A DNA stretch of 55,663 nt from an uncultured Gammaproteobacteria bacterium (GTDB taxonomy: Bacteria > Patescibacteriota > Microgenomatia > UBA8517 > JACQJR01), in assembly GCA_964363945.1 (NCBI GenBank), contig CAYIKF010000001.1, positions 1-55,663 of the forward strand. Direction: 5' to 3'. The position numbers were made by a program, and so were the translations under genes. Below the pieces are notes generated by a model. The model ran no database searches, was not told where the DNA came from, and saw only the letters and a program-made list of their open reading frames with translations. Shown here piece after piece: positions 1 to 49,974 of this stretch. How positions within the stretch are numbered: the first letter of the stretch is position 1; each line of letters begins with the position of its first letter.

Positions 1-804
1 AGTAATTCAAACTTTTTTTCTTGTGTTACCAATCCCCAAAACTTCACCTTCTCTGCGATACCCAGTTTTTTTGTTAATCGTTTCAATTGATTAAAATAGT
101 TCTGCGTCTCTGGTTTGCCTATAACCCAAAAGTTGCACTCCCCAAGCTTATTAAGAATTGAGAAACATCGAATGGCATCTTCGATTCCCTTATCTCTTGA
201 AAGTATTCCAAGATAAACAACTGTTTTTATTTTTGATTTTTGATATTTAATTTTTGATTTTTTGATTATCACTCCATGTGGAACCACATTTATGTTACTT
301 GCAGGAATGCCCATTTTAACCACATCTTTTTTTGCCGACTGCGATCCAGTCATAAAAGGGACATTTCTATAGAGCTTAAAAACCCATGGCTCAACCAAAT
401 AGCCCAGCATTCCAGTAACCCAATTAATCGGCCAGGGTAGTGGATTTAAAAACCAAACTTTCCTTGCTGTCTCTTGAATCACCGCTAACTTTGGTTTTTT
501 AACATAGATTGGTGTAAAAAACGGGAGTCCATGAAATTGATCAACCACAAAATCATAACTATTTTTGTTTTTTAAGTAATAAAAAAATCCAGACAGTTGT
601 ACACCCAAGTATTGATAACCACTACGAATAATTCTTATTCCATCTAAAACTTCTTCTTTTTTGGAACTATTAAATCTTGAGGAAAAAAGAGTAACTTCAT
701 GACCATTACCAACCCACCCCTTCATATGCTCATGCATAACTTGTTCTGCTCCTCCGGCTAGCGGATGTTTTGGATCTCGCCAGGAAAAAATTAATATGTT
801 CATA
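1..804 (-). CDS. Glycosyltransferase family 4 (GT-B) protein, N-terminal part; ORF continues past the left window edge
   Basis: Not in the supplied ORF track. The reverse complement of 802-804 is ATG. Hand translation reads MNILIFSWRDPKHPLAGGAEQVMHEHMKGWVGNGHEVTLFSSRFNSSKKEE..., the usual N-terminal Rossmann half of GT4 enzymes. The frame stays open to base 1. A 12-bp gap separates it from the stop of the upstream gene. Confidence 0.7.
224..266. repeat. T-rich heptamer tract (TTTTGAT-like units, about 6) inside the partial GT4 ORF
   Basis: Read directly: tttttat ttttgat ttttgat atttaat ttttgat tttttgat. It encodes KKSKIKYQKSKIK. Bases 231-255 are an exact 25-bp copy of 5590-5614. Confidence 0.8.
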
Positions 805-816
805 TTAATTTTTGAT

Positions 817-1209
817 TTAAGGTCTATGATTTAAGTGTAGGCCTGATTTGAGGTATTTTATCAAACCACCCAACAAACTACCCACTTTATTGCATTGATT
901 AAAAAGAGTTTCATACTTTTCTTTTTCTAAATAACCTAAGTCCATTGACAAAAGGAGATGATATTTTGTTTCTTCTAAAGAGCCTTTTGCTAAAAACAAA
1001 AATTGTAGATATTCTCTTTTGTACGCTTTCGAATTTCCTTCGACTATATTAGTAGGAACAGAAGAGGCAGATCTACATATCTGATCTACAAGCCTGAATT
1101 TTTCTTCGCTTGGAAATTTTTTAGTTTCCTTATAGATAAAAAGCGTCAATTTATGAGCTTCTCGCCATACCTCCAACTCCTCAAATCTATTATTTAATTG
1201 TTTCCTCAT
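817..1209 (-). CDS. Four-helix-bundle protein (23S rRNA intervening-sequence / S23-type family, Avd-like fold)
   Basis: 130 aa. Segments EELEVWREAHKLTLFIYKETKKFP, QICRSASSVPTNIVEGNSK and AKGSLEETKYHL match my memory of the TIGR02436/PF05635 four-helix-bundle family. Confidence 0.85.
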   Translation of the reverse strand: MRKQLNNRFEELEVWREAHKLTLFIYKETKKFPSEEKFRLVDQICRSASSVPTNIVEGNSKAYKREYLQFLFLAKGSLEETKYHLLLSMDLGYLEKEKYETLFNQCNKVGSLLGGLIKYLKSGLHLNHRP

Positions 1210-1239
1210 ACTTCATACATCCTAAATCTTACATCTGTA

Positions 1240-2091
1240 CTATCCTACATTCACTCTAAGATTTAAATCTGGATCATATACCCATTTTCTCCTATTTTTA
1301 TCATCGTAGTAATGCAAAATTCTAAGTCTATAGAAGACCGCTAATGTATCCCACGCCATTCTAAAAATAGTCGACCAGCGAATTCTGCTTGTTCTTATAT
1401 CAAACGTTACTTCGATTGGAGCTTCATAAATTCTTTTAAACCCCAGATAGCGTGCAACAGAAAGCATCTCTATATCCATGGCGTAGCGTTTCACCAGTAA
1501 TCTTGGCAAGACTTTATCTAAAACTTTCCTTCTGAATATCTTTATCCCACTTTGTGTATCAGTTAGTGATAGACCAAAAAGTACCTTTACTCCTAGGTGG
1601 TATCCCAAACTTAAAATATGTCGAAGCAGAGGATAATTTACGCGGGATACAGGGTGTCTTTTTGAACCAACAATAACATCAGCATTGTACCATTCCATAT
1701 GGGCCATGAGCATCATGATACCGGCTGGCGAAATATCCATTCCTGCATCCAAAAAAGAAATGAGTTCCCCACGTGAGCGCGCCATACCATATCGGACAGC
1801 ATATCCCTTGCCCTTATTTTCTTCGTAACTAATTACCTTTATCTTTTTAGATTTTATTTTTGATGCTTCTTTAAACGTACCGTCAATCATGCCGTCAACA
1901 ACACATATAATCTCATAATCGTGATCTCTTAAGCCTTCTTTTAAAACCATTTCTATATTTGTTAAGTCTTTCTTTATGGTACGTTCTTGTCTATAAGCTG
2001 GAATAATAACAGATAATAATTTATTTTGGGTTCCAGCTTTCAAGCTCCGCTTATAAGCTGGAATAATAACAGAGAGTAATCTCTTTCTCAT
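1240..2091 (-). CDS. Glycosyltransferase family 2 (GT-A)
   Basis: 283 aa with SVIIPAY first strand, ICVVDGMIDGT and LDAGMD motifs. ATGA overlap (2088-2091) with the upstream gene. The N-terminus holds a duplicated LLSVIIPAY segment (repeat 1992-2073). An in-frame TTG at 2041-2043 could be the ancestral start. Confidence 0.85.
   Translation of the reverse strand: MRKRLLSVIIPAYKRSLKAGTQNKLLSVIIPAYRQERTIKKDLTNIEMVLKEGLRDHDYEIICVVDGMIDGTFKEASKIKSKKIKVISYEENKGKGYAVRYGMARSRGELISFLDAGMDISPAGIMMLMAHMEWYNADVIVGSKRHPVSRVNYPLLRHILSLGYHLGVKVLFGLSLTDTQSGIKIFRRKVLDKVLPRLLVKRYAMDIEMLSVARYLGFKRIYEAPIEVTFDIRTSRIRWSTIFRMAWDTLAVFYRLRILHYYDDKNRRKWVYDPDLNLRVNVG
1992..2073. repeat. In-frame 60-bp tandem duplication marked by the 22-bp direct repeat TATAAGCTGGAATAATAACAGA (1992-2013 and 2052-2073)
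   Basis: Both copies were read directly. They encode the duplicated LLSVIIPAY segment of the GT2 at 1240-2091. Confidence 0.85.
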
Positions 2092-3371
2092 TTTTTGTGA
2101 TTATGATATGGGAAGTATACAAGAAGCGATAAAAGCAGTAAAGCAGCGCACACAATAGAAATTTGAATAACCCGTAGCAAAGTCGGATGTATAAACCAAA
2201 TAAGTAGTATTTGCAAAAGTGCAGCAACTACAAAAAACCACACAACCCTCGTTTTATTAATAGACAAATAAAATTGAGTAAAAAGCATAGAAAGTACAAG
2301 GAGCGTCATAAAAATGCCAAACCACCAAAGCATAGGAGCGCCCATAAGATATCCCCTCCCATAAAGTACTCCAATAGGAATTTCAGGAAAAAGCCAATAA
2401 AACAACGCGACTCCAAGTGCAATCCCACTCACTAAGAAAATGCTTAAATAAAAGATTGTGTGATACGGTTGGCTGTGAGAAAACCGACGAGCAATTAGAG
2501 GAAACATTACGTGTATAACAGGGGACGCGCCAAAAAATGCGACCCTTCCGAGTACCGCCAACGAAGCGTATACACCCGCCTCCTCTGCAGAGAAAAAGTG
2601 TTTTACTAATAGAAGATCCGTAGAATACATCGAAGTTAATGCAAGTCCCTGTATAAATACGGGAATTGAATACTTAACAAGTGGACCAATATGGGGCATC
2701 ACTCCTCGCTTTCCACGTAAATATGAGTAAAGAGAAACACGTGTGACAAGAAGTGCACACACAAGTCCAACGAGCACCGCACCAATTGCCCCAACTACCG
2801 CAAAGCCCAAAAATATAAATACTACCGTTAAGAGAATTTTCACAGCTACCTCAACTAGAAGAGTGAATACATATTTATTGAACGAAAGTATTCCTTGAAG
2901 AATTGCCCTCTGGGCTGTGAGGACAAGGAAAAACAAAAGGATTGGTATCAATATATACATCGACGCGGGCTGTTGCATGTTTAAAAATGTAACAAGAAAC
3001 GGAGAAAGTATGAGTATAAAACCACCAGTAAAAACTCCAAGCCATATACTCCACCAGTTAATCCATTTTGCCAAATTCGCTACCGATGTATTGTTTTTCG
3101 CGGAAGCAATAAACTTCACAACAGTCAGAGATAACGATAATTGAATAATACCGATAATGCCTAAAATAGAAATGATCGTCGCGACATCTCCATAATATGC
3201 TTTTCCTAAAAATTCACCATATACTCTTTCAAGCGACCGTGCAGCTACAAAATGATACACAAATTGCCCAAAGTTAAAGAGGTTCGTCCCCACCACCATC
3301 ACAAAACTTCCGGCAAAAAGAGGATGTCTCAATATGGAATATGGAAAATGGAAGATGGAAAATCGCTTCAT
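2088..3371 (-). CDS. Polytopic membrane protein, probable MOP/Wzx-type oligosaccharide flippase
   Basis: 427 aa, almost entirely hydrophobic helices (about 12) with no soluble domain, embedded in a glycosyltransferase operon. Assignment rests on topology and context only. Confidence 0.55.
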   Translation of the reverse strand: MKRFSIFHFPYSILRHPLFAGSFVMVVGTNLFNFGQFVYHFVAARSLERVYGEFLGKAYYGDVATIISILGIIGIIQLSLSLTVVKFIASAKNNTSVANLAKWINWWSIWLGVFTGGFILILSPFLVTFLNMQQPASMYILIPILLFFLVLTAQRAILQGILSFNKYVFTLLVEVAVKILLTVVFIFLGFAVVGAIGAVLVGLVCALLVTRVSLYSYLRGKRGVMPHIGPLVKYSIPVFIQGLALTSMYSTDLLLVKHFFSAEEAGVYASLAVLGRVAFFGASPVIHVMFPLIARRFSHSQPYHTIFYLSIFLVSGIALGVALFYWLFPEIPIGVLYGRGYLMGAPMLWWFGIFMTLLVLSMLFTQFYLSINKTRVVWFFVVAALLQILLIWFIHPTLLRVIQISIVCAALLLLSLLVYFPYHNHKK

Positions 3372-4537
3372 TATGCTATCCAGTATCCTCTAACAAACAA
3401 AGAAGTTGCAATGCCCAAAAGGACAAAGAGCACAAAAGAAGTTGCAACCTTCACCCACAATGGACTCTTCTCAAGAAAAATTGCGGCAATTAAGAATGCA
3501 GGAAAGAGTGGAAGCATATATCGTGAAAGAGACGAGAAACTTCCAGATAATGTCGGGAGAACATATCCCCCAAGAAGCCATAATGCATAGGAAAGACGCA
3601 ACTTAAAGAATGAAAAGAACGCGGCAATAAGAAAAAGAATTGCTGTGGCGGATTCAAGCAAAAAGGTAAAAATGAAAGGATCTCGAATATTTATATCCAT
3701 TAGAATTTTAAAGTAGCGCCAGAATACTTGGGGGAGTAAAATTAGAGTACTTGAGCGTTGCTCGCCAAACCATGTAAGTGTATGAAAAAATGCAAAAGGG
3801 TCACCAGTTGTCTGGTAGAGATAGTACATATAAGCAAATAGTCCTAATGGAATTATAAAAAGAGAAATTAATTGAAAATTGAAAATTGAAAATTGAAAAT
3901 TTTTTCTTTGTGTCCACCACTCAACCAACAATACCGGTAATAACACTATCCCCAATACTCGTGTTGCGCTCGCAAATGCACCCAAAATTCCTGATGCCCA
4001 CCACCAACCACGCCGAGCCGCGTAAAATGACCAAACAACTAAAGCAAAAAACAAACTCTCTGTATAAACACTCCCAAAATAAAATGAGGTAGGAAAAACA
4101 AGGAACAATATAATAGTTAATTCTGTAATACTTTTTTTAAAATCTAATCGCAGTAATTTCCATAAACCTAAAAGAGCAAGAAAAAATGCAAAATAAGAAA
4201 TAAATAACCCTGCGGCTTGTAAAAAATATACATCTCCGCGAATTGGCCAGACCAGAAAACGCATTAAAAGTGGGTAAAGCGGGAAAAAAGCTTCCTCACC
4301 ATGCCCATATCCATGTTGGGCAATAGACAGATAATGTTCGCCATCAAAATTTCCCCATGCCCAAAAAAATGGCACTCTAAGATAGTGCTCAAGCCCTCCA
4401 CCTAAAAAATGAAGCCTAAGAGGAATAAAAACAACCGCTGCCAGTAAAAACACAAAGGTCCAAATTTTCCAAGCAAAAAAGAGGGAAATTAATAATGTAA
4501 CTAATGATTGATCTTTGTCTTTTTTCATACCATTCAC
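3371..4537 (-). CDS. Polytopic membrane glycosyltransferase, PIG-V/Gpi18-like (GT-C)
   Basis: 388 aa. GNFDGEHYLSIAQHGY...EEAFFPLYPLLMRF resembles bacterial PIG-V-type mannosyltransferase homologues. The same motif class occurs in 45305-46462 (YYAAHFPAFPLLIRAF). Contains an in-frame heptamer array (3871-3898). Confidence 0.5.
   Translation of the reverse strand: MNGMKKDKDQSLVTLLISLFFAWKIWTFVFLLAAVVFIPLRLHFLGGGLEHYLRVPFFWAWGNFDGEHYLSIAQHGYGHGEEAFFPLYPLLMRFLVWPIRGDVYFLQAAGLFISYFAFFLALLGLWKLLRLDFKKSITELTIILFLVFPTSFYFGSVYTESLFFALVVWSFYAARRGWWWASGILGAFASATRVLGIVLLPVLLVEWWTQRKNFQFSIFNFQLISLFIIPLGLFAYMYYLYQTTGDPFAFFHTLTWFGEQRSSTLILLPQVFWRYFKILMDINIRDPFIFTFLLESATAILFLIAAFFSFFKLRLSYALWLLGGYVLPTLSGSFSSLSRYMLPLFPAFLIAAIFLEKSPLWVKVATSFVLFVLLGIATSLFVRGYWIA
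3871..3898. repeat. Tandem heptamer array (ATTGAAA)x4, in frame in 3371-4537
   Basis: Four perfect units were read directly. The coding strand reads TTTCAAT units and gives the peptide NFQFSIFNFQ. Confidence 0.9.
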
Positions 4538-4543
4538 CTAGAA

Positions 4544-5590
4544 CTATTCACTAATCACTTTCCTATACGCTTCTATCGTTTGTGTAGCCGTTTTTCTCCA
4601 CGAAAATTCTTTTGCCCGCTCAAATCCTCTTTTAATTAATGACTTTCTAAGATTTAAGTTATTTATGACTGTTGTCAAACCATCCGCAATATTCCTTGGA
4701 TCTTTTGGATTAACAAACAAAGCTGAATTTTGCACAATTTCAACTATGCTTTGAGTTTTTGCAGCAACAACAGGGCAACCACACGCCATTGCTTCGAGTA
4801 CCGGTAATCCAAATCCTTCATAAAAAGAAGGTTGACAATACACTGTTGCAAGATTATAGAAATAAACCAAGTCTTCTGTTGGTACAAATCCAGGCATTAT
4901 AACTTTATCTTCAAGATTTACCCTTTTAATTAATTGAAATATCTCTTTTACCTCTGGTAGTTCTGTATTTTTGAAGGCATCACCAACAAGAACAAGTTTG
5001 ATGATTAACGATTGATGATTGACGATTGATGAGAAAGCTTTCAATATACCCGGGATATTCTTATTGTAATTCACGTCTCCCACATAAAGGGCAAACTTTT
5101 CTGGCAAGTTGTACTTTTTTCTAAAATCTAAAATCCAAGCTCTATCATCCAACTTTATAAATTCTTTCCCTGACGCAAGATGAACTACATGGATTTTATT
5201 AGCAGATATATCTAAAAATCTAAAAATATCTTTTTTAGAGGTTTCAGAATCAGTAATCACAGCCGCTACACCTTTTAAAGAAAATTTTTGAATTTGGTAC
5301 TTAATGAGTCCCCGAATTCCAGGAGAATACTGTTCTGGATAAATGAGCGGAATAACATCGTGAATAGTGACGACAGTGGGTTTAGGTTTTGAAAGTGGTA
5401 ATGTCAAAAAGAACAAATCAAAGTAAGGATAATGGACTACATCACAGTTTTTTATTTTATCTACTAATTCGATTTCCTTTTGTTCTTTTAAGGCGTCAAG
5501 TAAGTTTCTGGTATATGCACCAACTCCACGCACAGCATGTCCACTTTTTAGCGAAGTTGCATCTATAAACACTCTAATTCTCTTATTCAT
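4544..5590 (-). CDS. Glycosyltransferase family 4 (GT-B)
   Basis: 348 aa. The C-terminal half carries FYEGFGLPVLEAMACGCPVVAA, the E-x7-E nucleotide-sugar motif of GT4/group-1 enzymes. Confidence 0.9.
   Translation of the reverse strand: MNKRIRVFIDATSLKSGHAVRGVGAYTRNLLDALKEQKEIELVDKIKNCDVVHYPYFDLFFLTLPLSKPKPTVVTIHDVIPLIYPEQYSPGIRGLIKYQIQKFSLKGVAAVITDSETSKKDIFRFLDISANKIHVVHLASGKEFIKLDDRAWILDFRKKYNLPEKFALYVGDVNYNKNIPGILKAFSSIVNHQSLIIKLVLVGDAFKNTELPEVKEIFQLIKRVNLEDKVIMPGFVPTEDLVYFYNLATVYCQPSFYEGFGLPVLEAMACGCPVVAAKTQSIVEIVQNSALFVNPKDPRNIADGLTTVINNLNLRKSLIKRGFERAKEFSWRKTATQTIEAYRKVISE
5000..5033. repeat. Tandem 14-mer (2 x 7) array GATGATT-RACGATT, about 2.4 units, in frame in GT4 4544-5590
   Basis: gatgatt aacgatt gatgatt gacgatt gatgag was read directly. 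It encodes SSIVNHQSLII. Confidence 0.8.
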
Positions 5591-5621
5591 TTTGATTTTT
5601 GATATTTAATTTTTAATTTTT
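5590..5621. repeat. T-rich heptamer tract spanning the GT4 start codon, the intergenic gap and the GT2 3' end
   Basis: Bases 5590-5614 (ttttgatttttgatatttaattttt) are identical to 231-255. Confidence 0.8.
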
Positions 5622-6484
5622 CTAAGGTACCTCCAATATGCTCTCGGAAAACGGAGTGCTGAAAAGAACGAAAAGATCATTCCCTGCCACCCGTCTAAAA
5701 TTCCTTTGTGACGAATTTGAGTCAATAAAAACCACCAAAGGGGTTTGCTCACAAAATAATTAATAAACTGCAGTGGATTTTTGCCTACTTTATCGCGTTT
5801 TAACTCCGTAGCTAATAAGTCTATATATCGACTATTGCGTTCAAGATACCGTTTAAATGTCGGGTCTGCCATGTGAAGTAAATCGTGTTGTAACCATCCC
5901 ACTCGTCCCCGAACAACAATTTGCTCATGCACACTTTTTGCCGGAAAATATGCTTTTCCTTGTTTTACCAATCTTATCACACCATCAGGATACACACCGC
6001 CATGCCGCAAAAATTTACCAAGAAAAAAATTAAGTCGCGGGACAAAAAAACCTGCATATTCTCCGCCAGATGTACCAATTTTTCCATCGCGCTGTTCTAA
6101 TAATCTCTGATGGCGAATAAATAATTTCCTATTTGGTAATCGTTCTTGATACTCATCTATCTTTTCGTCGCTCATTTCGGTAATCTGTTCAATCTCTTTT
6201 GCAAGTTGTGGAGTCACCCGCTCATCTGCATCAAGTTGCAAAATCCAAACTCCGGTTGCCGCTTCAAGTGCTTTTTGTTTATTAATATGAAAAATCGGCG
6301 GATTAGTTGTTTTAATTATTCGAGACCCGTATTCCTTTGCAATCTCTCGTGTTCTATCGGATGATGACCCATCAACGATTACAATCTCGTCAGCAATCTC
6401 TTTTACAGACTCCAAACATGCTCCAATATTTTTCTCTTCATTAAAAGTTGCAAGAACGACAGACAGCTTATATTTTTTACTCAT
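5606..6484 (-). CDS. Glycosyltransferase family 2 (WaaE/KdtX-like subgroup)
   Basis: 292 aa with KLSVVLATFNEEKNI, IVDGSSSDRT, LQLDADE and a distal HGGVYPDGVIRL motif. Paralogous to 28518-29369 and 30327-31223. Confidence 0.85.
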   Translation of the reverse strand: MSKKYKLSVVLATFNEEKNIGACLESVKEIADEIVIVDGSSSDRTREIAKEYGSRIIKTTNPPIFHINKQKALEAATGVWILQLDADERVTPQLAKEIEQITEMSDEKIDEYQERLPNRKLFIRHQRLLEQRDGKIGTSGGEYAGFFVPRLNFFLGKFLRHGGVYPDGVIRLVKQGKAYFPAKSVHEQIVVRGRVGWLQHDLLHMADPTFKRYLERNSRYIDLLATELKRDKVGKNPLQFINYFVSKPLWWFLLTQIRHKGILDGWQGMIFSFFSALRFPRAYWRYLRKIKN

Positions 6485-8159: not shown

Positions 8160-8177
8160 ATATTCATATATGAATAT
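8160..8177. repeat. 18-bp perfect palindrome ATATTCATATATGAATAT that fills the whole intercistronic gap
   Basis: Read directly. It is bounded by the TAA stop of 8178-9881 and the ATG of 6486-8159. Confidence 0.85.
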
Positions 8178-9881: not shown

Positions 9882-9888
9882 TGAATCA
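9874..9888. repeat. 15-bp palindrome TGATTCATTGAATCA that overlaps the start codon of 8178-9881
   Basis: Read directly (7+1+7). The ATG at 9879-9881 lies inside it. Confidence 0.75.
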
Positions 9889-9889
9889 T

Positions 9890-14944: not shown

Positions 14945-14961
14945 TACCTAAATTGTAGCAT

Positions 14962-22882: not shown

Positions 22883-23532
22883 TCTTTTACTGTTTTCACA
22901 ACATGGAGCATTCCCAATAAAAACTTTTTATTCTCTCTTATCTTCAACCCTGATTGCTCTAGTAATCTCTCAAGAAAATTGTTTGAAAAATTATGAAGGT
23001 GCGTATCTTCCCAAATATTTTTACCCGGCAACATCTGCCAAAGCGGCCAAATGATACTGTGGAAAAGCCAATTTTCACTAGGCACCAAAATAACTGCGTA
23101 TCCACCCTTTTTGAGCACACGATAAATTTCCCGCAGGACTCTTGAAGGGTCAACTACATGCTCAAGCGCTTCCAAACAAAATACCGCATTAAATTCTTGC
23201 GTTTTAAAAGGAAGATTATGCGCATCAGCAACTTTGAATTTCATTTGTTTGTTTTTAGAAAATCTCTTTTTGGCATAATCAATTGAACTCTTGAGTACAT
23301 CAATCCCAACAAGTTTTCGTGCACCAGTTTTTTGAAATATTATTTTAGTAAACGTTCCATCAGCACAACCAATATCAAGAATGCTTTCTGCCGGCTCAAT
23401 AAGTTCTCCTACTTCTAAAAATCGTCTCGTGTGCCAAAATCGCTGAAGTAGATTTCTTTTAATGGAGCGTTCGTACCAATCAGGAGGAACATTCTTGTGT
23501 AAACGTACTGCTATAGTATGTGTATCTTTCAT
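22879..23532 (-). CDS. Class I SAM-dependent methyltransferase
   Basis: 217 aa with motif I ILDIGCADGTF and post-I/II elements (VGIDV, FNAVFCLEALEHV). Confidence 0.85.
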   Translation of the reverse strand: MKDTHTIAVRLHKNVPPDWYERSIKRNLLQRFWHTRRFLEVGELIEPAESILDIGCADGTFTKIIFQKTGARKLVGIDVLKSSIDYAKKRFSKNKQMKFKVADAHNLPFKTQEFNAVFCLEALEHVVDPSRVLREIYRVLKKGGYAVILVPSENWLFHSIIWPLWQMLPGKNIWEDTHLHNFSNNFLERLLEQSGLKIRENKKFLLGMLHVVKTVKE

Positions 23533-30325: not shown

Positions 30326-30326
30326 T

Positions 30327-43052: not shown

Positions 43053-45277
43053 TATGGTTTTCCGCTTGGGTTATGCACCAATTTGTATACCTTTACCCCC
43101 GCCACATCCCACTCTTCATCGATTTTTGACCAGCCAAAAACTGTAATTTCCGCCTTTGGGCTGTGAGTTGGGTCGCATTTTTCTTGAGGTAATTCACACA
43201 CAACGAATAATTGCTCGGCAACTGTTTCTTCGTAACGGAGCGGATCAATATCCCGGACCGGCTCTCTCCACCATTCAAGGAAATACTGATACGCATCTTC
43301 ATAATTACGCTCGGCCAAGACAGCCAAATTAAATGTTTGACCTTTTGCTTCCTGCACAATCTTCGCCGACACCTCTTCCGTCCTTTGAAGTTGTCTTTGT
43401 GGTGGATTTTTAATTGGCGTCTGGTAAAGATTTAGAACAACCAACCCTACTATACCAATCAATAATATCCACCTGAAACCTGGCACCTGAAACCTGGCAC
43501 CTGAAACCTGTTGGGCAATCATGCCCAACAGTACGAATGGTACCATAAACATAAATCCAAAATAGTGGTCGTAGATATTTTGTTTTAAAAGAGCCATACC
43601 ACTTAAACCGAACCCCGTCCAAACAAGAAGGAGAAAAGCGGGTGACTGGAAGAATGTTTGGCGCTGTTTGACTACAATCCAAAACGTACCTATAAGGGTA
43701 ACCACGGCAACGAGTTTTCCCCACAATTCGTTCATTGCGCCAACCAAACGTGTAATCTCTTGCTGGAACAATGGCCACAGTTCTGGAATTGCATTCCAAG
43801 GACGAGCAGAAACAGTGGCTTGACGCTCGGTAAAGAAAATGCGCATTGCCTCAAAATTGCGCCAACCATGGCGGGCATCAAAGATGACAAGAGGAGACAT
43901 TAAGACTGCGAATATTACAATAGAAATCAGGGTATATCGCAGTAATTTTCCAATTTCCAATTTCCAATTTCCAATTAGTTTCGAATTGCGAATTTGAAAA
44001 AATGTTAATAACCAAAAAAGGCCTATTGTTGGAGCAAGGAGAAGGCCGAGATAGTGTGACTGTAACACGAACGCATACGATACCCCAAGCACAATAAGCC
44101 ATTTCCATTCCTGATACTTCCAGACACGCCAAATACTATAAATAGAAAGTATAGCAAAAAAGGGCATGATATTAGGATTCCAAGAGGAGCGAGAATAAGT
44201 AACGACAACCGGTGAAACTGCATACAAACTTGCGGCAACAACTGCCGCTACTTTTCCAAACCACTCCCTGCTAACCCACCAAACAAATCCAATAGTAATC
44301 ACTCCGAGAGTAGCAATTTGTGCTACGGGACCAACTGGGGAAAGACGAAAAAGAAAAAGTGCCGGTGCCATCAGGTAATAATAAAGGGGTCCTAGATACA
44401 TATTGCCAATAGAGGTACCCGGACCGACTAAAATAGGGTCGAAGTCAACGAGCAGACGGCGTACCACAATCGCATCTCTCCCCTCATCTCCCAGGAAAGT
44501 CATATATTCTGATAATCGATAAAATCGAAGAAACGCACCAACGATTAAAATTGTGAGTAAGGCAAAAAATTCAAGTTTCGGCAAGAATTTCCACCAAATT
44601 TTAAAAAGATCGATGTAAGACTGTATTATTACTTTTATATTAGCTCCCGTAGGTCTGCCAGCAAGACGTGGATAATGGTTAACCCCCACTTCAACAACGC
44701 TGAACCCAAATTTTTTAGCCTTTATTGCAAGTTCTGCATTAATCATTCCTCCCCGTTTTGACTCAAGATGTGGAATCTGCTCAAGTACTCTTCTTTTAAT
44801 CATCTTAAAACCACAATCAACATCCCTCAGTTTTAAACCAAAAAGGGTAAATAAGGATAACGCCCATCCTTTTGCAAAAAGAAGTCTAAAAAATGGGTCT
44901 TGCCTTTTAATCCTGTATCCAACAATCAAATCAGCGGTATCTAATTTTTCTATAAATTTTGAACTTTCTGAAAAATCAAATTGCCCATCAGAATCTGTAT
45001 ACGCAATTACATCATACTTGGCATTATAAAATCCTGACTTTAAAGCCTCACCATAACCTAAGTTTTTCTTATGACTAACAACACGAATGTTAGGATAGTG
45101 CTTCTCTAACTTTTGGGCAACTTCAAGGGTTTTATCACTTGAGCCGTCATTAACAATAATGACTTCCCACTGTGCCGCAATTTTTTTAAGGACACCAATT
45201 GTTTTCTCAACTGTACGTTCTAAATTTGCTTCTTCGTTATAAGCAGGGAAGAAGACGGAGAGCGCGCTGATTTTCAT
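43052..45277 (-). CDS. Fusion protein: N-terminal Dpm1/GtrB-like polyprenyl-phosphate glycosyltransferase (GT2) plus C-terminal GT-C-like family-B membrane domain
   Basis: 741 aa in one uninterrupted ORF. Residues 1 to about 230 carry LSVFFPAYNEEANL, IVNDGSSDKT, TDSDGQ, DVDCGFKM and HYPRLAGRPTG. The rest is polytopic and carries GDEGRDAIVVRRL...ILVGPGTSIGNMYLGPLYYYLMAP. It contains a GGAAATT array and a 14-mer array. Confidence 0.75.
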   Translation of the reverse strand: MKISALSVFFPAYNEEANLERTVEKTIGVLKKIAAQWEVIIVNDGSSDKTLEVAQKLEKHYPNIRVVSHKKNLGYGEALKSGFYNAKYDVIAYTDSDGQFDFSESSKFIEKLDTADLIVGYRIKRQDPFFRLLFAKGWALSLFTLFGLKLRDVDCGFKMIKRRVLEQIPHLESKRGGMINAELAIKAKKFGFSVVEVGVNHYPRLAGRPTGANIKVIIQSYIDLFKIWWKFLPKLEFFALLTILIVGAFLRFYRLSEYMTFLGDEGRDAIVVRRLLVDFDPILVGPGTSIGNMYLGPLYYYLMAPALFLFRLSPVGPVAQIATLGVITIGFVWWVSREWFGKVAAVVAASLYAVSPVVVTYSRSSWNPNIMPFFAILSIYSIWRVWKYQEWKWLIVLGVSYAFVLQSHYLGLLLAPTIGLFWLLTFFQIRNSKLIGNWKLEIGKLLRYTLISIVIFAVLMSPLVIFDARHGWRNFEAMRIFFTERQATVSARPWNAIPELWPLFQQEITRLVGAMNELWGKLVAVVTLIGTFWIVVKQRQTFFQSPAFLLLVWTGFGLSGMALLKQNIYDHYFGFMFMVPFVLLGMIAQQVSGARFQVPGFRWILLIGIVGLVVLNLYQTPIKNPPQRQLQRTEEVSAKIVQEAKGQTFNLAVLAERNYEDAYQYFLEWWREPVRDIDPLRYEETVAEQLFVVCELPQEKCDPTHSPKAEITVFGWSKIDEEWDVAGVKVYKLVHNPSGKP
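43471..43510. repeat. Tandem 14-mer array ACCTGAAACCTGGC, about 2.9 units, in frame in the fusion gene
   Basis: Read directly. It encodes SGARFQVPGFRW. Confidence 0.9.
43947..43974. repeat. Tandem heptamer array (TTTCCAA)x4 on the plus strand, GGAAATT on the coding strand
   Basis: Read directly. It encodes LIGNWKLEIGK in the fusion gene. Confidence 0.95.
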
Positions 45278-45304: not shown

Positions 45305-46462
45305 ATGCGACTCAACGAAAGAGTACTCCATATTCTTGCCATCGCAGCTGCCACTCTCATCCCTCCTATCCTTGTGTGGGCACCCTTTTTCATACGAATG
45401 CCATCCTTTTGGGGAATAAAGCTACCTCAAGAGGGTATGGCAACAATCATCGCTAATTTTGACGGCCCTTACTATATTGTGGCGGCAAAAACCCTCTATA
45501 ACACTGCTGCTTTGGGGCAATTCGAATTTCCTCTTCCCAAAGAATACTATGCTGCTCACTTCCCCGCCTTTCCGCTCCTCATTCGTGCGTTCTCTCCTCT
45601 CTTTGGATATCCATGGGCAATGATGATTGTCACGCTCCTCTCTTCGTTCGTGGCACTCATGCTATTTTATCTGCTCATCCGACAGGTAGGACTTAAGACA
45701 CACGCACTATGGCTTACATTGGTATTTGCAGTTTTTCCTGCTCGGTGGTTAATTGTCCGTTCAGTCGGTTCCCCCGAACCCCTCTTCATCGCAGCAGTTC
45801 TGGCGAGTTTTTATTTCCTCTTACGAGGAAATTATTGGGCGACGGGTATCGCGGGTGCTGTCGCAATGTTTACTAAATCTCCCGGGATTTTACTGTTTGC
45901 CGCGCTCACTGCAGCACTCGCCGCACCACACATTCATAACCTTTTCATCCAACCGACGAGTACTCTTCGAAAGCTTTTACCCCAAGGTTTACCGCTTCTC
46001 TTTATTCCTGCCACGGTTTTACTGGTGTTTGCCTGGTATGCACGCGCGTATGGCGACTTTTTCGCATATTTCCATTCCGGGGACAACATCCATCTTCTTT
46101 TTCCCCCTTTTCAAGTATTTAATGCCGCACAAACTTGGGTTGGGACATTTTGGCTTGAAGAAATTAACTGGCTTTACCTTTTCGGCTTTTTAGGGGTGTT
46201 TGCCTTAATTAAAAAGCGTCAATTTCCGTTTGCATGGTTTGTAGGAACATTTTTTGCATCAACCCTATTTGTCTCCCATAGAGATATCGCTCGTTATATC
46301 CTCCCAATTGTTCCATTTTTATTTATCGCTTTTTCTGACGTACTTACCAGTCGCCCCTTCAGGTGGGCACTTGCACTCCTTTTGCTCCCCATTTATCTGT
46401 CCGCGCTCAATTTTATTATCGGGAATGTCACTCCAATTGCCGACTGGAGACCACTGTTGTAA
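45305..46462 (+). CDS. Polytopic membrane protein, PIG-V-like (GT-C), paralog class of 3371-4537
   Basis: 385 aa with DGPYYIVAAKTLY...YYAAHFPAFPLLIRAF and about 9 TM helices. Divergently arranged, 27 bp from the fusion gene. Confidence 0.5.
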   Translation: MRLNERVLHILAIAAATLIPPILVWAPFFIRMPSFWGIKLPQEGMATIIANFDGPYYIVAAKTLYNTAALGQFEFPLPKEYYAAHFPAFPLLIRAFSPLFGYPWAMMIVTLLSSFVALMLFYLLIRQVGLKTHALWLTLVFAVFPARWLIVRSVGSPEPLFIAAVLASFYFLLRGNYWATGIAGAVAMFTKSPGILLFAALTAALAAPHIHNLFIQPTSTLRKLLPQGLPLLFIPATVLLVFAWYARAYGDFFAYFHSGDNIHLLFPPFQVFNAAQTWVGTFWLEEINWLYLFGFLGVFALIKKRQFPFAWFVGTFFASTLFVSHRDIARYILPIVPFLFIAFSDVLTSRPFRWALALLLLPIYLSALNFIIGNVTPIADWRPLL

Positions 46463-46474: not shown

Positions 46475-47314
46475 ATGAATATAGGATTTTTTTATGCAAT
46501 AGCTTCGGCCATAGCGTGGGGCTCTTACCTCGTTCCATTTAAGAAATCTCAGTCTTCCAACTTTACCCAATTTCAAATGCTCATGACTATTGGTATAATC
46601 CTTTTTTCAATAGTAAGTATCCCTTTTCTCAACTACTCCTTTAATGTAAACCTCTTTGGTCTGATAAGCGGGATTATGTGGGCTTCCGCTAATGCAATAT
46701 CTCTCTATGGCGTTAGAGATCTTGGTCTGTCTCGATTTGTACCAATATCTGTTTCTTTAGTTATTTTTGTGTCGTTCTTATGGGGAGCTTTTGTATTTCA
46801 TGAGTTGTCGGCAGGATTTTTAACAGGAATTGTGGGAATTGTGCTTATTATTGTTGGAGTTATCCTTATTGGAACAACAGGCAATACTCAGAGCGAAAAC
46901 GTTAAGCGTGGAATCATTTTATCTGTAGTAGCAGGAATCATCTGGGGTAGCCAATTAGTTCCGCTTCGACTTGGAAATCTTACACCTTCAGATTTTTTCT
47001 TTTCAATGTCTTTGGGTATTGCTCTATTTGGAATCGCGTATTTTTTTCATAAACGGGAGTCATTCCGAAATGAGGCGGTGGGAAATAGCATACTAAGTGG
47101 TATTTTATGGAGTATTGGAAATCTATTGAGTATTATTACCGTATCGCTAATCGGTTTGGCAAAAGGTTTTCCTCTTACGCAAGCATCAGTACTTATTGCT
47201 GTAATCTGGGGAGTATTCTACTTTAAAGAAATAACCAAAAGTTCCGATATTAGAAAAATTTTAATCGGGTCTGTAATTCTTATGGCAGGAGTCGTGATAC
47301 TTGGTCTTGCTTAG
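46475..47314 (+). CDS. DMT-superfamily (EamA/GRP-like) 10-TM transporter, possibly sugar or nucleotide-sugar
   Basis: 279 aa with two homologous 5-TM halves. The N-terminus FFYAIASAIAWGSYLVPFK is typical of DMT transporters. Substrate unknown. Confidence 0.5.
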   Translation: MNIGFFYAIASAIAWGSYLVPFKKSQSSNFTQFQMLMTIGIILFSIVSIPFLNYSFNVNLFGLISGIMWASANAISLYGVRDLGLSRFVPISVSLVIFVSFLWGAFVFHELSAGFLTGIVGIVLIIVGVILIGTTGNTQSENVKRGIILSVVAGIIWGSQLVPLRLGNLTPSDFFFSMSLGIALFGIAYFFHKRESFRNEAVGNSILSGILWSIGNLLSIITVSLIGLAKGFPLTQASVLIAVIWGVFYFKEITKSSDIRKILIGSVILMAGVVILGLA

Positions 47315-47345: not shown

Positions 47346-48077
47346 TTACTGTAATCCAATTCTCTTGGGTGGAAGTGATAATTTTTTACTCAGTTCACCA
47401 ATCAAGAAATCTATCACTTGAGAGTCATATTCTGCTGGCTGTTGAACTATTGGTACGGAACCACTCCAGGGGCTCCTGTACTCTCCTCGTGAAGCCTCCT
47501 TATCGATAAACACACCACTTAACAATCCTGTTCCGTGGCTATATTTTTCGTTGTAAACGGGACTTCTGACAACAAATTCCGCAACCTCTCTACCAACTAA
47601 TATCAAGCGGTCATGCCAAGTGTATAGAGCCGCACTATTTGGATCCCTATTCAAATTACGACCCGGTAAAACAGCTCCTACATGTCTTTCTCCTACATCT
47701 TGCCAACTATTCTCTTTTGAGCCATAGAAAAAATATTCCCAGGTAGCTCCACCATGGGCAGTTTTTGACCTCTCACCGGTAAATATTTTTGCCATTACTA
47801 AAGCCTTATCAAAAGCCTTCAGCCAATCTCTAGCTAATAATTCTCCTCGTGCAACTAAAAGACCCTCTTCAGGTGCTATTTCTCCAATAAAACCATCAAA
47901 TAAAAACTCTACGTCTATTGATCCAATTCCATCAGCATAAGAAGCCCAACAAACCATTGCTTGTTCGAATTCTTTTACAACTTGCGATTTTTCTTTAAGG
48001 GAAGAATAAACACGACTAACTACCTCTTGAGGTCTTAGACTTTCTTCTGGAGTCATTCTATCTTTATCTTCAACCAT
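47346..48077 (-). CDS. Hypothetical soluble protein, no family recognised
   Basis: 243-aa ORF preceded by a canonical sigma70-like promoter (48092-48119). No motif known to me. Confidence 0.5.
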   Translation of the reverse strand: MVEDKDRMTPEESLRPQEVVSRVYSSLKEKSQVVKEFEQAMVCWASYADGIGSIDVEFLFDGFIGEIAPEEGLLVARGELLARDWLKAFDKALVMAKIFTGERSKTAHGGATWEYFFYGSKENSWQDVGERHVGAVLPGRNLNRDPNSAALYTWHDRLILVGREVAEFVVRSPVYNEKYSHGTGLLSGVFIDKEASRGEYRSPWSGSVPIVQQPAEYDSQVIDFLIGELSKKLSLPPKRIGLQ

Positions 48078-48136: not shown

Positions 48137-48730
48137 TTATACCTTCCGGGCGAGGAAATTAAGATAGTTACTTGTCCGGGGCTTGAATTGCTCGAAGTGA
48201 ATAATTTGAAAGCTATAAGAGTTTAAACATTCTCTTAAATCTTCTTTCTGATAATAAACAAAGAGACGAGGTTCACCTCCCAACGAATAACGAATTTCTT
48301 CTCCCTCTCCTTCAATCATTCCCAACCCAAATACCCCATTAGGAACAAGCACTCTCCATATCTCTCGCAACGTCCTATTCATGTAAGAGCGGTCCACGTG
48401 GAGAAGAGAAGTATAAGCCCATACACCGTCAAAAGATTGATTTGCAAACGGAAGATTTAAAAAGTCAGCTTGAACTGAAGGCAATCCTCTTTCTGTTGCT
48501 CTCTCGACCATGCTTCTCGCTGCATCAAGACACACGACATCGACTCCTGTATTTTTAATAATCAAGCCATCTCTCCCCGGACCACTTCCCACATCAAGTA
48601 CCACTCCGCTACGAACGCTTTCTTTATACTTTCTAATAATTGCATCAGGAAATTCCTCCCAGAATGTATCTGTCTCCTGCTCATATGCTCCCACCATACG
48701 ATTGTATGTGTTAACAGTTTCTGTGTGCAT
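48137..48730 (-). CDS. Class I SAM-dependent methyltransferase
   Basis: 197 aa with motif I VLDVGSGPGRDG, then VVCLDAARSM and FDGVWAYTSLLHV. Confidence 0.85.
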   Translation of the reverse strand: MHTETVNTYNRMVGAYEQETDTFWEEFPDAIIRKYKESVRSGVVLDVGSGPGRDGLIIKNTGVDVVCLDAARSMVERATERGLPSVQADFLNLPFANQSFDGVWAYTSLLHVDRSYMNRTLREIWRVLVPNGVFGLGMIEGEGEEIRYSLGGEPRLFVYYQKEDLRECLNSYSFQIIHFEQFKPRTSNYLNFLARKV

Positions 48731-48739
48731 TCAAGGAGG

Positions 48740-48748
48740 ATTATAACA
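48740..48748 (-). promoter_or_regulatory. Extended -10 candidate TGTTATAAT, 9 nt upstream of the methyltransferase ATG
   Basis: Read directly on the minus strand. The intervening CCTCCTTGA contains no SD-like purine run. Confidence 0.4.
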
Positions 48749-48765
48749 CCTTTGACAAAGAAGAA

Positions 48766-49974
48766 TTAGAATATATTTTTGAGCTTTGCGTAGACTTTTG
48801 CAAAACTCCAGCGTCTCCAAATAAAGAGATTATACATTGTGTAATTGTAGGGAATAATTAAGAATGCAACAGCAATAACAAGGAAAGTTTGACGAACAAG
48901 TCGGGTATCCCCAAAGAAAATAACGCCTGTACCAACCACCAAGGATTGAATGACAATTGCCCCAAAGGAAGTGAGATTAAATTGAACAAACTTTTTTATA
49001 TACCGAAGAGGGCCTTTTATCTGTATATCCTCAAAGGTCCACAAATTATCAAGGTTGAAGTTTGAGAAAATAGCCAATTCCGCAGCTGCTGCAGCTGCCC
49101 AAAAAGAAGGTTCGGCAATTACGGCAAAAGAGGTATCACGAGCTTGGACAAAAAATCCCGCTAGAGCCTGCGTCCAGGGCAACATCCGGAAAACCTCAAG
49201 ACCCACAGCGTTAATGACAAATCCTATCCCTCCAACAATTGCAAACTTTAGAAATCGAGTCCTCAGCCGCAACACAATAAAAAACGTATCAAATGTTTCT
49301 TTTAATTTGAATTTTGATTGTTCTGCCTTCCTTGGCAAAAAGGCAATAGGAACTTCCTTAACTTTTGCCCCCAATTTTAAAAGTTCGAAAAGAAGGTGAA
49401 TTTTGTACGCATAACTTGCTTTTCCGAATAAGCTATCAAGCGCGACCTTTGATAATACCTTTGTTTTCGTTAAACGAAATCCAGTGGTCAAATCGTGAAC
49501 TTGGGGTAAAAAAAGAACTGTTCTGGCAAAAAGATTACCGCCAAACGAGAGGAATTTCCTATAAAATGCCCACTCTTTCGGAACGGATCCGCCTTTTATG
49601 TAGCGTGACCCGATAACTACATCGGCTTGCTGGGAAGCAGCGACTAAGCGCGGGACATCCGCAGGATTGTGCTGGAAATCTGCGTCCATTTCAACCACTG
49701 CATCTGCCTTCATCTTGGCAATTGCATATTTCATTCCCCTGATATAGGCAAAACCAAGACCCTGTTTTTCTCCAGTCATTAAGTGAAGATTTTTGTATTT
49801 CTTCGTCGCTTCACGAACGACTTCTCCTGTGCCGTCAGGAGAGTTATCATCAACTACAAGTAAATGCATTTCGTGGTCGCGAATTTTAGGAAATTCTTCC
49901 TCAAAAAGCACGTCAATCATCCGAGCAATATTCCCCCGCTCGTTGTATGTCGGCATGATAATGACAATACGCAT
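48766..49974 (-). CDS. Dpm1-like polyprenyl-phosphate mannosyl/glycosyl-transferase (GT2) fused to a C-terminal GtrA-like 4-TM domain
   Basis: 402 aa with IVIIMPTYNERGNI, VVDDNSPDGTGE, EMDADFQH and DLTTGFRL. After about residue 240 there are four hydrophobic helices (FLKFAIVGGIGFVINAVG...) resembling GtrA-family proteins. Confidence 0.8.
   Translation of the reverse strand: MRIVIIMPTYNERGNIARMIDVLFEEEFPKIRDHEMHLLVVDDNSPDGTGEVVREATKKYKNLHLMTGEKQGLGFAYIRGMKYAIAKMKADAVVEMDADFQHNPADVPRLVAASQQADVVIGSRYIKGGSVPKEWAFYRKFLSFGGNLFARTVLFLPQVHDLTTGFRLTKTKVLSKVALDSLFGKASYAYKIHLLFELLKLGAKVKEVPIAFLPRKAEQSKFKLKETFDTFFIVLRLRTRFLKFAIVGGIGFVINAVGLEVFRMLPWTQALAGFFVQARDTSFAVIAEPSFWAAAAAAELAIFSNFNLDNLWTFEDIQIKGPLRYIKKFVQFNLTSFGAIVIQSLVVGTGVIFFGDTRLVRQTFLVIAVAFLIIPYNYTMYNLFIWRRWSFAKVYAKLKNIF

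Follow-up and report, generated by a model that had tools for sequence, protein, structure and literature searches.

In the Gtr and ArnC/ArnT systems a GT2 enzyme makes a polyprenyl-phosphate monosaccharide in the cytoplasm, which is then used outside by a membrane glycosyltransferase (GT) of the GT-C type. Both kinds of enzyme were found in the locus described here, a block of glycosylation genes at positions 1–49974 of contig CAYIKF010000001.1 (assembly GCA_964363945.1) from a bacterium of the Microgenomates, within the Candidate Phyla Radiation (CPR); the whole stretch analysed, 55,663 nt, is called the window, and its open reading frames (ORFs) are numbered g00–g46. Alike are the synthases g31 and g33N (the N-terminal part of g33), which matched GtrB (sll0501) and ArnC, the GtrA-type transmembrane (TM) domain carried by g38, and the fusion of a synthase to a GT-C partner in g33. 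The locus differs from these systems in having four synthases for 20 GT-C proteins of at least seven sequence families and no free-standing GtrA, and in being chromosomal and conserved across a class, not phage-borne as Gtr; the organism is without an outer membrane, so that O-antigen and lipid A are not available as acceptors.

The locus likewise resembles the Campylobacter pgl and archaeal agl systems in that a GT-C protein with a predicted oligosaccharyltransferase (OST) fold, g26, adjoins a flippase and a run of GT2 and GT4 genes, and in the presence of methyltransferases and of synthases of the dolichyl phosphate (Dol-P) type. The flippase is of the Wzx type, whereas that of pgl is the ABC transporter PglK; an initiator of the PglC/WecA type was not found among the window ORFs, and g26 has neither detectable sequence similarity to STT3, PglB or AglB nor a DK/MI motif. 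Euryarchaeal N-glycans are assembled on dolichol monophosphate, methylation at the lipid stage is documented, and the final sugar may come from its own Dol-P carrier, as it does in the agl pathway of Haloferax, to which the locus may be likened (PMC11407970).

In bacteria, GT-C enzymes that draw on polyprenyl-phosphate sugars are well known in similar numbers only from mycobacteria and corynebacteria (Ppm1, Pmt, PimE, MptA–C, EmbA–C, AftA–D); AftA also came up as a structural match of g26. In mycobacteria these enzymes are dispersed over more than 4 Mb of genome, whereas here 20 lie in one 50-kb block, and no Emb/Aft or GT87 Pfam hit was obtained in the window. With teichoic-acid glycosylation by CsbB/GtcA/YfhO in Firmicutes and with the Pgf system of S. 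mutans (PgfS/PgfM) the locus shares the monoderm envelope, a YfhO-family enzyme (g20) and a synthase whose best NCBIfam match was PgfS (g02); those systems have one or two membrane GTs, and teichoic-acid synthesis genes were not seen here.

Weighing these likenesses with the data given below, we consider it somewhat probable that this Microgenomates bacterium glycosylates its cell envelope mainly by means of the locus, which would operate through two lipid-carrier routes. ORF listing and translation gave 46 complete ORFs in the window and g00, which is cut by the contig end at the left. An earlier note on this DNA, made from the sequence alone, had described 39 ORFs in the interval 1–49974 with all but three on the minus strand, and about 20 lipid-carrier-dependent GT-C proteins among them. 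The 39 ORFs are g00–g38, with only g15, g34 and g35 on the plus strand, and the 20 polytopic GT-C proteins were borne out by profile and structure searches: 13 scored above the Pfam gathering threshold (g04, PIG-V; g20, YfhO; g29, PTPS_related; g07, g08, g09, g11, g12, g14, g15, g30, g32 and the C-terminal part of g33, PMT_2/PMT), and the others were assigned by BLASTP paralogy or by AlphaFold2 (AF2) models compared with the PDB using Foldseek.

Just under the PMT_2 threshold were g19 (25.1 bits), a paralogue of g32 (2.5e-25), and g28, a paralogue of g07 (9e-8); g34 reached 18.8 bits, also below threshold, and is a paralogue of g04. No Pfam or NCBIfam hit was obtained for g10, g13, g25 and g26, of which g10 shares 35% of its residues with g29 across 533 aa (8e-111) and g25 27% identical to g13 (3e-24). 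The YfhO match of g20 (PF09586, 101.3 bits at a cut-off of 28.5) spans residues 113–657, and g29 matched the same family weakly (21.4 bits) beside PTPS_related. For both g13 and g26 the AF2 model shows a membrane bundle made up entirely of helices; for g13 (pLDDT 90, built on 40 homologues) yeast ALG6 was the best Foldseek match (1.7e-6, TMq 0.68), followed by GPI-MT-I, PIG-U, ArnT, ALG12 and ALG9. Comparison of the g13 and g26 family profiles with the PMT-like paralogues by hhalign was weak (50% and 5.6% probability, respectively). A crude hydropathy scan predicted 6–11 TM segments in all 20 proteins and, in 19 of them, an N-terminal TM1 followed by a loop of 35–112 residues with an Asp motif (DE, DxGRD, HDD, FDG, GHDG or PD...HVD); in g33 TM1 escaped the scan, and the motif FLGDEGRD was recognised by eye. 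Since four donor synthases are encoded in the locus, the use of polyprenyl-(pyro)phosphate-linked donors by these enzymes is plausible.

The GT2 genes fall into six soluble enzymes (g06, g16, g17, g22, g23, g24) and four of the synthase type (g02, g31, g33N, g38), where seven and three had been counted earlier, g02 grouping with the synthases by BLASTP (g31 1e-20, g33N 1.6e-19, g38 6e-14); its best NCBIfam matches, PgfS, PpgS and ArnC-like, were all below cut-off. That polyprenyl-phosphate-sugar synthases are present, as had been proposed, is confirmed by PDB matches: g38 aligned over its full length with the Pyrococcus furiosus DPMS (5mlz, 8.2e-36), g33N matched ArnC, DPMS and GtrB, and g31 matched sll0501 GtrB (1e-13), DPMS (1.2e-13) and ArnC (1.7e-12). 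In g33, residues 1–235 form an ArnC/GtrB-type synthase fused to a GT-C protein of the D-x-G-R-D group in one ORF of 741 aa, which has the same 741 aa in a second assembly (another ENA contig), and in every related locus covering the junction the two halves are two genes overlapping by about 18 nt; the fusion supports a direct pairing of synthase and transferase. The three GT4 enzymes (g00, g05, g21), two Wzx-type flippases (g03, g27) and two methyltransferases (g18, g37) read from the sequence earlier were confirmed by Pfam.

The six proteins previously called GT39/PMT-like are GT-C enzymes of the PMT_2 clan, and the characterised PMTs were not found to be their closest relatives. PMT (PF02366) scored above cut-off in g09, g11, g12 and g30 and below it or not at all in g07, g08 and g14, PMT_2 usually scoring higher than PMT in this locus; a profile of the six paralogues had ArnT (5ezm, E = 0.0034) as its sole PDB match, Pmt1, Pmt2 and Pmt4 not being found. 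The name thus denotes a PMT_2-clan assignment only, with ArnT as the nearest solved relative by sequence. A D-E pair (D34/E35) is invariant in loop 1 of the alignment of the six, and g07, g08 and g09 combine this motif with a C-terminal soluble domain of about 140 aa. These enzymes might instead glycosylate proteins directly, modifying Ser/Thr of various secreted targets (pilins, S-layer, sortase substrates) in the manner of actinobacterial Pmt, with a number of paralogues that mirrors the number of targets. The PMT matches, the invariant D-E motif and the DPMS-type synthase agree with this, as does the richness of Microgenomates in pili and sortase (PMC6744442). The explanation seems to us quite improbable: the nearest solved relative, ArnT, modifies lipid A and was reached at E = 0.0034 only, Pfam reported no MIR domain, and the YfhO, PIG-V-like and ALG6-like enzymes are left unexplained together with the Wzx/GT2/GT4/g26 core.

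The centre of the favoured reading, a glycosylation locus with two routes, is g26, a protein of 581 aa, about the size of short AglBs, with a membrane domain and a C-terminal domain of about 150 aa. Its AF2 model (pLDDT 82.7, pTM 0.88) had 16 chains of OST catalytic subunits (yeast and human STT3, PglB, AglB; E 9e-10 to 4e-7, TMq 0.48–0.57) and three DPY19 chains as the 19 best Foldseek matches, AftA followed at 1.3e-4 and Pmt1/Pmt4 were far weaker; the C-terminal domain matched the isolated C-terminal globular domain of Archaeoglobus fulgidus AglB-S2 (3vu0). In 66 representatives, each at most 53% identical to g26, the residues G34, D50, Y79, H80, W164, N174, K217, G327, N328, N377 and Q380 are invariant. 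D50 lies in loop 1, about 19 residues after TM1, and the catalytic Asp of GT-C enzymes usually sits in loop 1 soon after TM1. The family comprises 1,573 clusters at 50% identity with E ≤ 1e-3. Many of its members (P0364, P0383) are 1,000–1,160 aa long and carry an additional N-terminal secreted domain of about 450 aa with the motifs NPVRG-DFW, GAWWID and DQYSTD-Y-VWG, for which no Pfam hit and one marginal PDB match, to an uncharacterised protein, were obtained. In P0402 (1,639 aa) Wzx, the 450-aa domain and a g26-like domain are joined in a single ORF; this protein and the g33 fusion are physical links between steps of the proposed pathway.

For the conservation of the locus, GTDB species representatives were scanned with an alignment of the g26 family, by which at least 228 genomes were found to encode a relative, and the counts given here refer to the best 80 of these 228 loci, compared with the window proteins by BLASTP. 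The immediate upstream neighbour of g26 is the Wzx gene g27 in 66 of 77 loci, its immediate downstream neighbour is g24 in 69 of 80, and the exact order g27-g26-g24-g23-g22-g21 is kept in 45 of the 71 loci with room for it. No other part of the locus is conserved as well. Ahead of this core one usually finds g33-g32-g31-g30-g29, and behind it g20-g19-g18-g17-g16; GT-C genes within ±10 kb of g26 number 4–11 (median 8). Genes like g10/g29, g13/g25 and g08/g11 vary in copy number and placement between relatives, and five loci of the Woesebacteria type (L040, L046, L055, L074, L075) have two or three tandem g26 paralogues of 610–690 aa, 29–32% identical to g26 and downstream of g10/g29-like genes. 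With gene order, core counts and flanks recurring in this way, the super-locus is an old, class-wide feature of the Microgenomatia, in which the core is fixed and the periphery varies. On sequence and model evidence, g26 would be a GT-C protein of the OST class, functionally tied to a flippase and four cytoplasmic GTs; it is not demonstrably a member of GT66. As an OST-fold protein adjoins a block of Wzx, three GT2 and one GT4, the core looks like a pgl/agl-type module, and a lipid-linked-oligosaccharide branch may be presumed to coexist with the Gtr-like branch.

Individual relatives show the same arrangement. On a 686-kb Blackburnbacteria contig (GCA_016183565.1) the gene order is the same over at least 34 kb with 14 GT-C genes, broken only by a five-gene insert on the opposite strand. 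On an 85-kb contig of a closer relative (L005, GCA_964442455.1) the order is kept, g25 is absent, and an extra PMT_2 gene and an ORF of 272 aa lie between the YfhO gene and g19; g25 was found at its position in this genome only, being absent there from both relatives. Nucleotide identity between L005 and the window ranges by segment from 75% (g20–g22) to 92% (g19, g27), which suggests that the locus has had a mosaic history. Homologues of g13 and g26 came almost only from Candidatus Microgenomates, Blackburnbacteria, Woesebacteria, Amesbacteria and "Patescibacteria group" metagenome-assembled genomes (MAGs), and a protein identical to g10 is encoded in a metagenome of the 0.1-µm fraction of Hainich groundwater (ERZ1292626), in keeping with the CPR-type origin suspected earlier.

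The contig is itself metagenome-assembled, it holds many paralogues and several of its genes contain repeat insertions, so that an artefact was considered, either a chimeric assembly of strain paralogues or a graveyard of decaying duplicates. To this we give hardly any credence, and it is already refuted. No two window paralogues are more than 37.6% identical (BLASTP), so they are not strain variants that were collapsed or duplicated. A Hainich contig from a separate assembly (L001) agrees with the window over 4,407 nt, at 99.955% identity and with no indel. Every ORF is intact, catalytic motifs are retained, and the gene order is repeated on the Blackburnbacteria contig, on that of the close relative and in dozens more MAGs, Woesebacteria and Amesbacteria among them. 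A chimera, named in the earlier note as what would overturn its view, is thereby ruled out, and the synteny search in Patescibacteria that it had proposed showed the arrangement to be kept in 80 related genomes.

Several results weigh against the reading of g26 as an OST and of the locus as a two-route system. DPY19 and AftA, which transfer single sugars, are also good structural matches of g26, so the fold alone is no proof of en bloc transfer. The g26 family (40 members) gave nothing at E ≤ 10 against the Pfam STT3 model (PF02516), six divergent g26 paralogues (29–32% identical) had no STT3 match in Pfam at E ≤ 1, and PDB searches with narrow and broad g26 profiles gave nothing relevant. A comparison by hhalign with an STT3 C-terminal alignment gave 0.2–0.3% probability, that alignment being built from exon-sized fragments with an STT3A peptide as query, so that the membrane domain was not comparable. 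The WWDYG motif is absent from g26. A strand-motif-helix element, VVLTYPFD, lies about 30 residues past the last TM helix, at about the place of WWDYG in OSTs; TYPFD, the candidate replacement, is not conserved in the divergent paralogues. No initiating phosphoglycosyltransferase was identified by Pfam among the window ORFs, the one GtrA-type module observed is the GtrA_DPMS_TM domain at the C-terminus of g38 (38.8 bits), with no free-standing GtrA ORF in the window, and most GT-C assignments reach clan level (PMT_2) only, which does not predict donor or acceptor. Finally, a scan for promoters and terminators (30–50 kb) gave counts at chance level and is uninformative on operons.

That no initiating phosphoglycosyltransferase, WWDYG OST, Wzy or WaaL is recognisable had been observed before, and the Pfam searches agree: the window ORFs gave no hit for WecA/MraY (Glycos_transf_4), WbaP (Bac_transf), Wzy, WaaL (Wzy_C), LCP (LytR_cpsA_psr) or STT3. 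The set of the Wzx/Wzy pathway, with an initiator, Wzy and a WaaL or LCP ligase beside Wzx, is not present in the window, which has only the two Wzx. The conclusion drawn at the time, that the assembly logic is unexplained, was too strong in view of the OST-fold protein g26. Similarly, the proposal of an expanded Gtr-like system holds for the synthases and the GT-C array and covers only part of the logic, to which the OST-fold/Wzx module has to be added.

Substrates, acceptor, carrier and co-expression in the following scheme are what we infer from the observed family and fold assignments, gene order and conservation. In the first route, the cytoplasmic GT2 and GT4 enzymes g21–g24, and probably also g16, g17, g05, g06 and g00, would build an oligosaccharide on polyprenyl phosphate, the methyltransferases g18 and g37 would modify it while lipid-linked, and the Wzx-type flippase g27 (and g03) would bring it to the outer face, where an extracytoplasmic acceptor, in all likelihood a protein of the cell surface, would receive it through g26; en bloc transfer by g26 is suggested by its context. 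Initiation may be due to a phosphoglycosyltransferase encoded elsewhere or to a Dpm1-like GT2 that charges a monophosphate carrier, the euryarchaeal pattern. In the second route, which is deduced from what is known of the families, g02, g31, g33N and g38 would make polyprenyl-phosphate monosaccharides, from which the other 19 GT-C enzymes would add single sugars outside, whether to the glycan, to a protein or to some other polymer of the envelope. Gain and loss of GT-C genes between close relatives around a fixed core would let the surface glycan differ by lineage.

The same inventory could serve a builder of mycobacterial type, in which the GT-C enzymes assemble a lipoglycan or secondary wall polysaccharide sugar by sugar at the outer face, with polyprenyl-phosphate monosaccharides as donors as in LM, LAM and arabinogalactan, g26 is a single-sugar GT-C and the Wzx, GT2 and GT4 proteins make a primer or linkage unit. 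Four donor synthases with 20 GT-C genes would suit such a polymer, the g26 model was matched by AftA (1.3e-4) and DPY19 among others, glycolipids or lipid-linked glycans are what PIG-V-like and ALG6-like GT-C enzymes act on, g26 is without WWDYG, and the sole NCBIfam match of g34, 'cell surface glycopolymer formation protein' (6.3e-9), points the same way, below cut-off. We think this unlikely, considering that OST catalytic subunits account for 16 of the 19 closest structural matches of g26 and that AglB is matched by its C-terminal domain too, that a pre-assembled oligosaccharide accords better with the tight, class-wide association of g26 with Wzx and four cytoplasmic GTs, and that no LCP-type ligase or lipid-anchor synthase is present among the window ORFs. 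Polymer building and direct O-glycosylation alike fit much of the inventory and explain the core of Wzx, g26, three GT2 and GT4 less well.

The individual features are collected in Table 1. GT-C genes occupy about 32.7 kb of the 50-kb locus, and this share together with the conservation in 80 genomes makes the arrangement more than chance. Twelve neighbouring ORF pairs overlap by 1, 4 or 8 nt, in agreement with the stop/start overlaps of 1–8 nt noticed before, and five further pairs overlap by 13–32 nt, where the start codon is uncertain. The minus strand holds 42 of the 46 complete ORFs of the window, the GC content is 34–43%, and the GC skew of the plus strand is negative in all 2-kb bins of the window. 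To the right of the interval follow TrmD (plus strand) and genes for an RmlC-like cupin, NrdR, an RNase H-like protein, DUF5615, archease, an RmlD-like and an RmlA-like protein; these seven ORFs past TrmD (g40–g46), which do not belong to the glycosylation block, are on the minus strand as is the locus. Because of this common orientation and the uniformly negative skew, unidirectionality is no evidence for one operon, and the layout would at least partly reflect a genome-wide strand bias. A strong G/C strand disparity has been described in other Microgenomates genomes (PMC7143001). No tRNA genes were found in the window, and Rfam gave no match over its whole length.

Table 1 Features of the window, with position, strand and basis of assignment
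Feature	Position	Strand	Assignment	Basis
g00	1–800	-	GT4, cut by contig end	Pfam Glyco_transf_4 5e-10, Glycos_transf_1 7.8e-8
g01	817–1209	-	Four-helix bundle (23S_rRNA_IVP / bAvd-like)	Pfam PF05635 9e-37
g02	1240–2091	-	GT2, polyprenyl-phosphate-sugar synthase type	Pfam GT2, BLASTP
g03	2088–3371	-	MOP/Wzx-type flippase, second copy	Pfam Polysacc_synt_3 7.2e-13, 48.9 bits
g04	3371–4537	-	GT-C, PIG-V-like	Pfam Mannosyl_trans2 1.7e-8, above cut-off
g05	4544–5590	-	GT4	Pfam Glycos_transf_1 2.3e-37
g06	5606–6484	-	Soluble GT2, paralogue of g22/g24	Pfam, BLASTP
g07, g08, g09	6486–11575	-	GT-C paralogues, PMT_2 clan	Pfam PMT_2/PMT; 28–38% mutual identity
g10	11568–13247	-	GT-C, PTPS_related/YfhO-like group	Paralogy to g29
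g11, g12	13244–16572	-	GT-C, PMT_2 clan	Pfam PMT_2 1.2e-10 and 7.2e-20
g13	16569–17849	-	GT-C, unnamed ALG6-like family (WGQTD / NAFNFW motifs)	AF2, Foldseek
g14	17846–19654	-	GT-C, PMT_2 clan, with GC-rich in-frame insert	PMT_2 27.6 bits
g15	19707–21212	+	GT-C, PMT_2 clan (D-x-G-R-D group)	PMT_2 28.9 bits; BLASTP to g33, g32
g16, g17	21202–22882	-	Soluble GT2	Pfam; NCBIfam TIGR01556 6e-18 (g16), 9.7e-7 (g17), below cut-off
g18	22879–23532	-	S-adenosylmethionine (SAM)-dependent methyltransferase	Pfam Methyltransf_11 4.6e-25
g19	23533–25089	-	GT-C (D-x-G-R-D group)	PMT_2 sub-threshold; paralogy to g32
g20	25077–27506	-	GT-C, YfhO family	Pfam YfhO 6.6e-29
g21 (GT4), g22, g23, g24 (GT2)	27475–31223	-	Cytoplasmic GTs of the conserved core	Pfam
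g25	31235–32596	-	GT-C, second ALG6-like	Paralogy to g13
g26	32596–34341	-	GT-C, sequence orphan, predicted OST-like fold	AF2, Foldseek
g27	34313–35806	-	MOP/Wzx flippase, overlaps g26 start by 29 nt	Polysacc_synt_3 1.6e-52
g28	35822–37303	-	GT-C, PMT_2 clan, weak	PMT_2 24.9 bits; paralogy to g07
g29	37307–39025	-	GT-C, PTPS_related/YfhO-like	Pfam PF10131 1.6e-9
g30	39022–40656	-	GT-C, PMT_2/PMT ('ArnT-like' of the earlier note)	PMT_2 1.3e-10, PMT 2.6e-6; no PDB sequence hit
g31	40669–41439	-	Polyprenyl-phosphate-sugar synthase (GtrB/DPMS/ArnC type)	PDB matches
g32	41436–43052	-	GT-C (D-x-G-R-D group)	Pfam PMT_2 34.3 bits
g33	43052–45277	-	Synthase and GT-C fusion	Pfam GT2 2.1e-29, PMT_2 1.8e-11; PDB ArnC 5.8e-16
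g34	45305–46462	+	GT-C, PIG-V-like	BLASTP to g04 2e-11
g35	46475–47314	+	Sugar permease (GlcU/EamA type)	Pfam Sugar_transport 4.1e-36
g36	47346–48077	-	Soluble protein	No Pfam or NCBIfam hit
g37	48137–48730	-	SAM-dependent methyltransferase	Pfam Methyltransf_11 9.7e-18
g38	48766–49974	-	DPMS-type synthase with GtrA-like 4-TM domain	Pfam GT2, GtrA_DPMS_TM; PDB 5mlz
g40	50768–51343	-	RmlC-like cupin, just beyond the locus	Pfam dTDP_sugar_isom 2.1e-9
g45, g46	53425–55120	-	RmlD-like reductase, RmlA-like nucleotidyltransferase	Pfam RmlD_sub_bind 1.2e-43; NTP_transferase 2.2e-53
Period-7 arrays, perfect (30–35 nt)	3870–3901, 7779–7813, 14576–14608, 30136–30169, 30217–30249, 39418–39447, 43947–43976
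Period-7 arrays, imperfect	224–267, 4998–5032, 5590–5621, 9480–9511, 22708–22741, 43470–43510, 50236–50268, 50536–50574
GC-rich palindromic element	~10030–10066 (g09), ~19230–19330 (g14), ~28972–29070 (g22)

Among the flanking genes, g40 is a possible contributor to sugar-nucleotide supply. In the region 50768–55120 the RmlC-, RmlD- and RmlA-like genes are interleaved with those for NrdR, the RNase H-like protein, the DUF5615/PIN-like protein and archease, and no RmlB was found in the window. The rhamnosyltransferase subfamily TIGR01556 was the best NCBIfam match of g16 (sub-threshold), with g17 matching weakly, and g23 also had a sub-threshold match to the rhamnosyltransferase subfamily; together with the Rml-like genes and the permease g35, the matches of g16 and g23 suggest a provision for sugar supply. 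The four-helix-bundle protein g01 sits between two glycosyltransferase genes, with no reverse transcriptase or template repeat seen nearby, and is probably not part of the pathway.

Two kinds of repeated element were observed. All seven perfect period-7 arrays lie in coding sequence with the frame kept, giving peptides such as LEIGNWKLEI and FQFPISNFQF; perfect arrays of the other periods from 4 to 11 were absent from the window, and shuffled sequence contained none. The unit AATTTCC/GGAAATT occurs five times, in g07, g11 and g33 and twice in g23. The same loop of the paralogues g07, g08 and g11 carries an insert, g09 and g12 have none there, and g14 has a GC-rich insert at this place. At two array sites the closest relative has unrelated sequence, and the exact 28-mer (AATTTCC)4 was found in at least 120 metagenome contigs with unrelated flanks, these contigs being enriched in other period-7 arrays; the housekeeping gene TrmD carries imperfect arrays too. 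Heptameric repeats are reported to be in excess in some bacteria (PMC4692102, PMC4679880). Phase variation was considered, since a 7-nt unit is not divisible by 3 and glycosyltransferase genes carry these arrays, and is of low probability: L001 is identical, a flank-anchored scan of metagenomes was empty and TrmD has similar arrays.

The second element, GC-rich, palindromic and about 100 nt long with the core TCCGCCAGCTGGCGGA, stands in frame in g09, g14 and g22, where it yields peptide inserts containing SASWR. Its predicted fold is a long hairpin of DNA (-30.5 kcal/mol, z = -3.2); a related copy lies in a different gene of L005 (5447–5557), and the core 14-mer occurs once in L006 (14054–14067). 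The element looks like a small mobile palindrome tolerated inside ORFs, similar to the in-frame palindromic elements of Rickettsia. Copy-number variation was found neither in the period-7 arrays nor in the GC-rich element, which leaves a link to phase variation unsupported.

Related complete or near-complete genomes measure 0.61–0.92 Mb, the complete ones 0.81–0.92 Mb, and at a size of 0.8–0.9 Mb, estimated from related complete genomes, the locus would take up about 6% of the genome, so that the striking share of coding capacity expected earlier is seen. The array is routine across the class Microgenomatia, though uncharacterised, and not peculiar to this genome. The earlier note had held that its view would fall if large arrays of this kind were both routine and characterised in the lineage; no published characterisation of such GT-C arrays was found in full-text searches of the literature, nor any paper linking CPR with OST, GT39, GT83 or GT66. 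The sole related remark encountered there credits a Microgenomates genome with "29 genes of glycosyl transferases" (PMC7143001), and many families enriched in Microgenomates are described as hypothetical membrane proteins (PMC6744442). What goes beyond the earlier note is the g26 core module and its class-wide conservation, in a locus unusual in its density of GT-C genes. Two GT-C families without a Pfam or NCBIfam model (g13/g25 and g26) extend the catalogue of lipid-carrier glycosyltransferases.

A further proposal, which we advance tentatively and hold to be possible, if doubtful, is that the Microgenomatia carry an unrecognised orphan lineage of STT3/AglB/PglB-like OSTs, lacking WWDYG and comprising at least 1,500 clusters at 50% identity, which with Wzx and a Dpm1-type monophosphate initiation would glycosylate surface proteins en bloc in archaeal style, a variable set of some 19 further GT-C enzymes then remodelling the glycan with polyprenyl-phosphate sugars. 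If true, bacteria would have a third route to OST-type protein glycosylation, and it would be what chiefly determines the cell surface of CPR.

The CPR/Patescibacteria make up a large share of bacterial diversity and live attached to or dependent on other cells, and their surface chemistry is hardly known. With about 6% of the genome, class-wide conservation and a turnover of GT-C genes between close relatives, the locus is an obvious candidate for building and diversifying the CPR surface. Handles for its study are offered by the six-gene core g27-g26-g24-g23-g22-g21, by the invariant residues of g26 and by the g33 fusion, which pairs a donor with its user. How the surface of CPR bacteria is built bears on host attachment, phage receptors and immune-like recognition.

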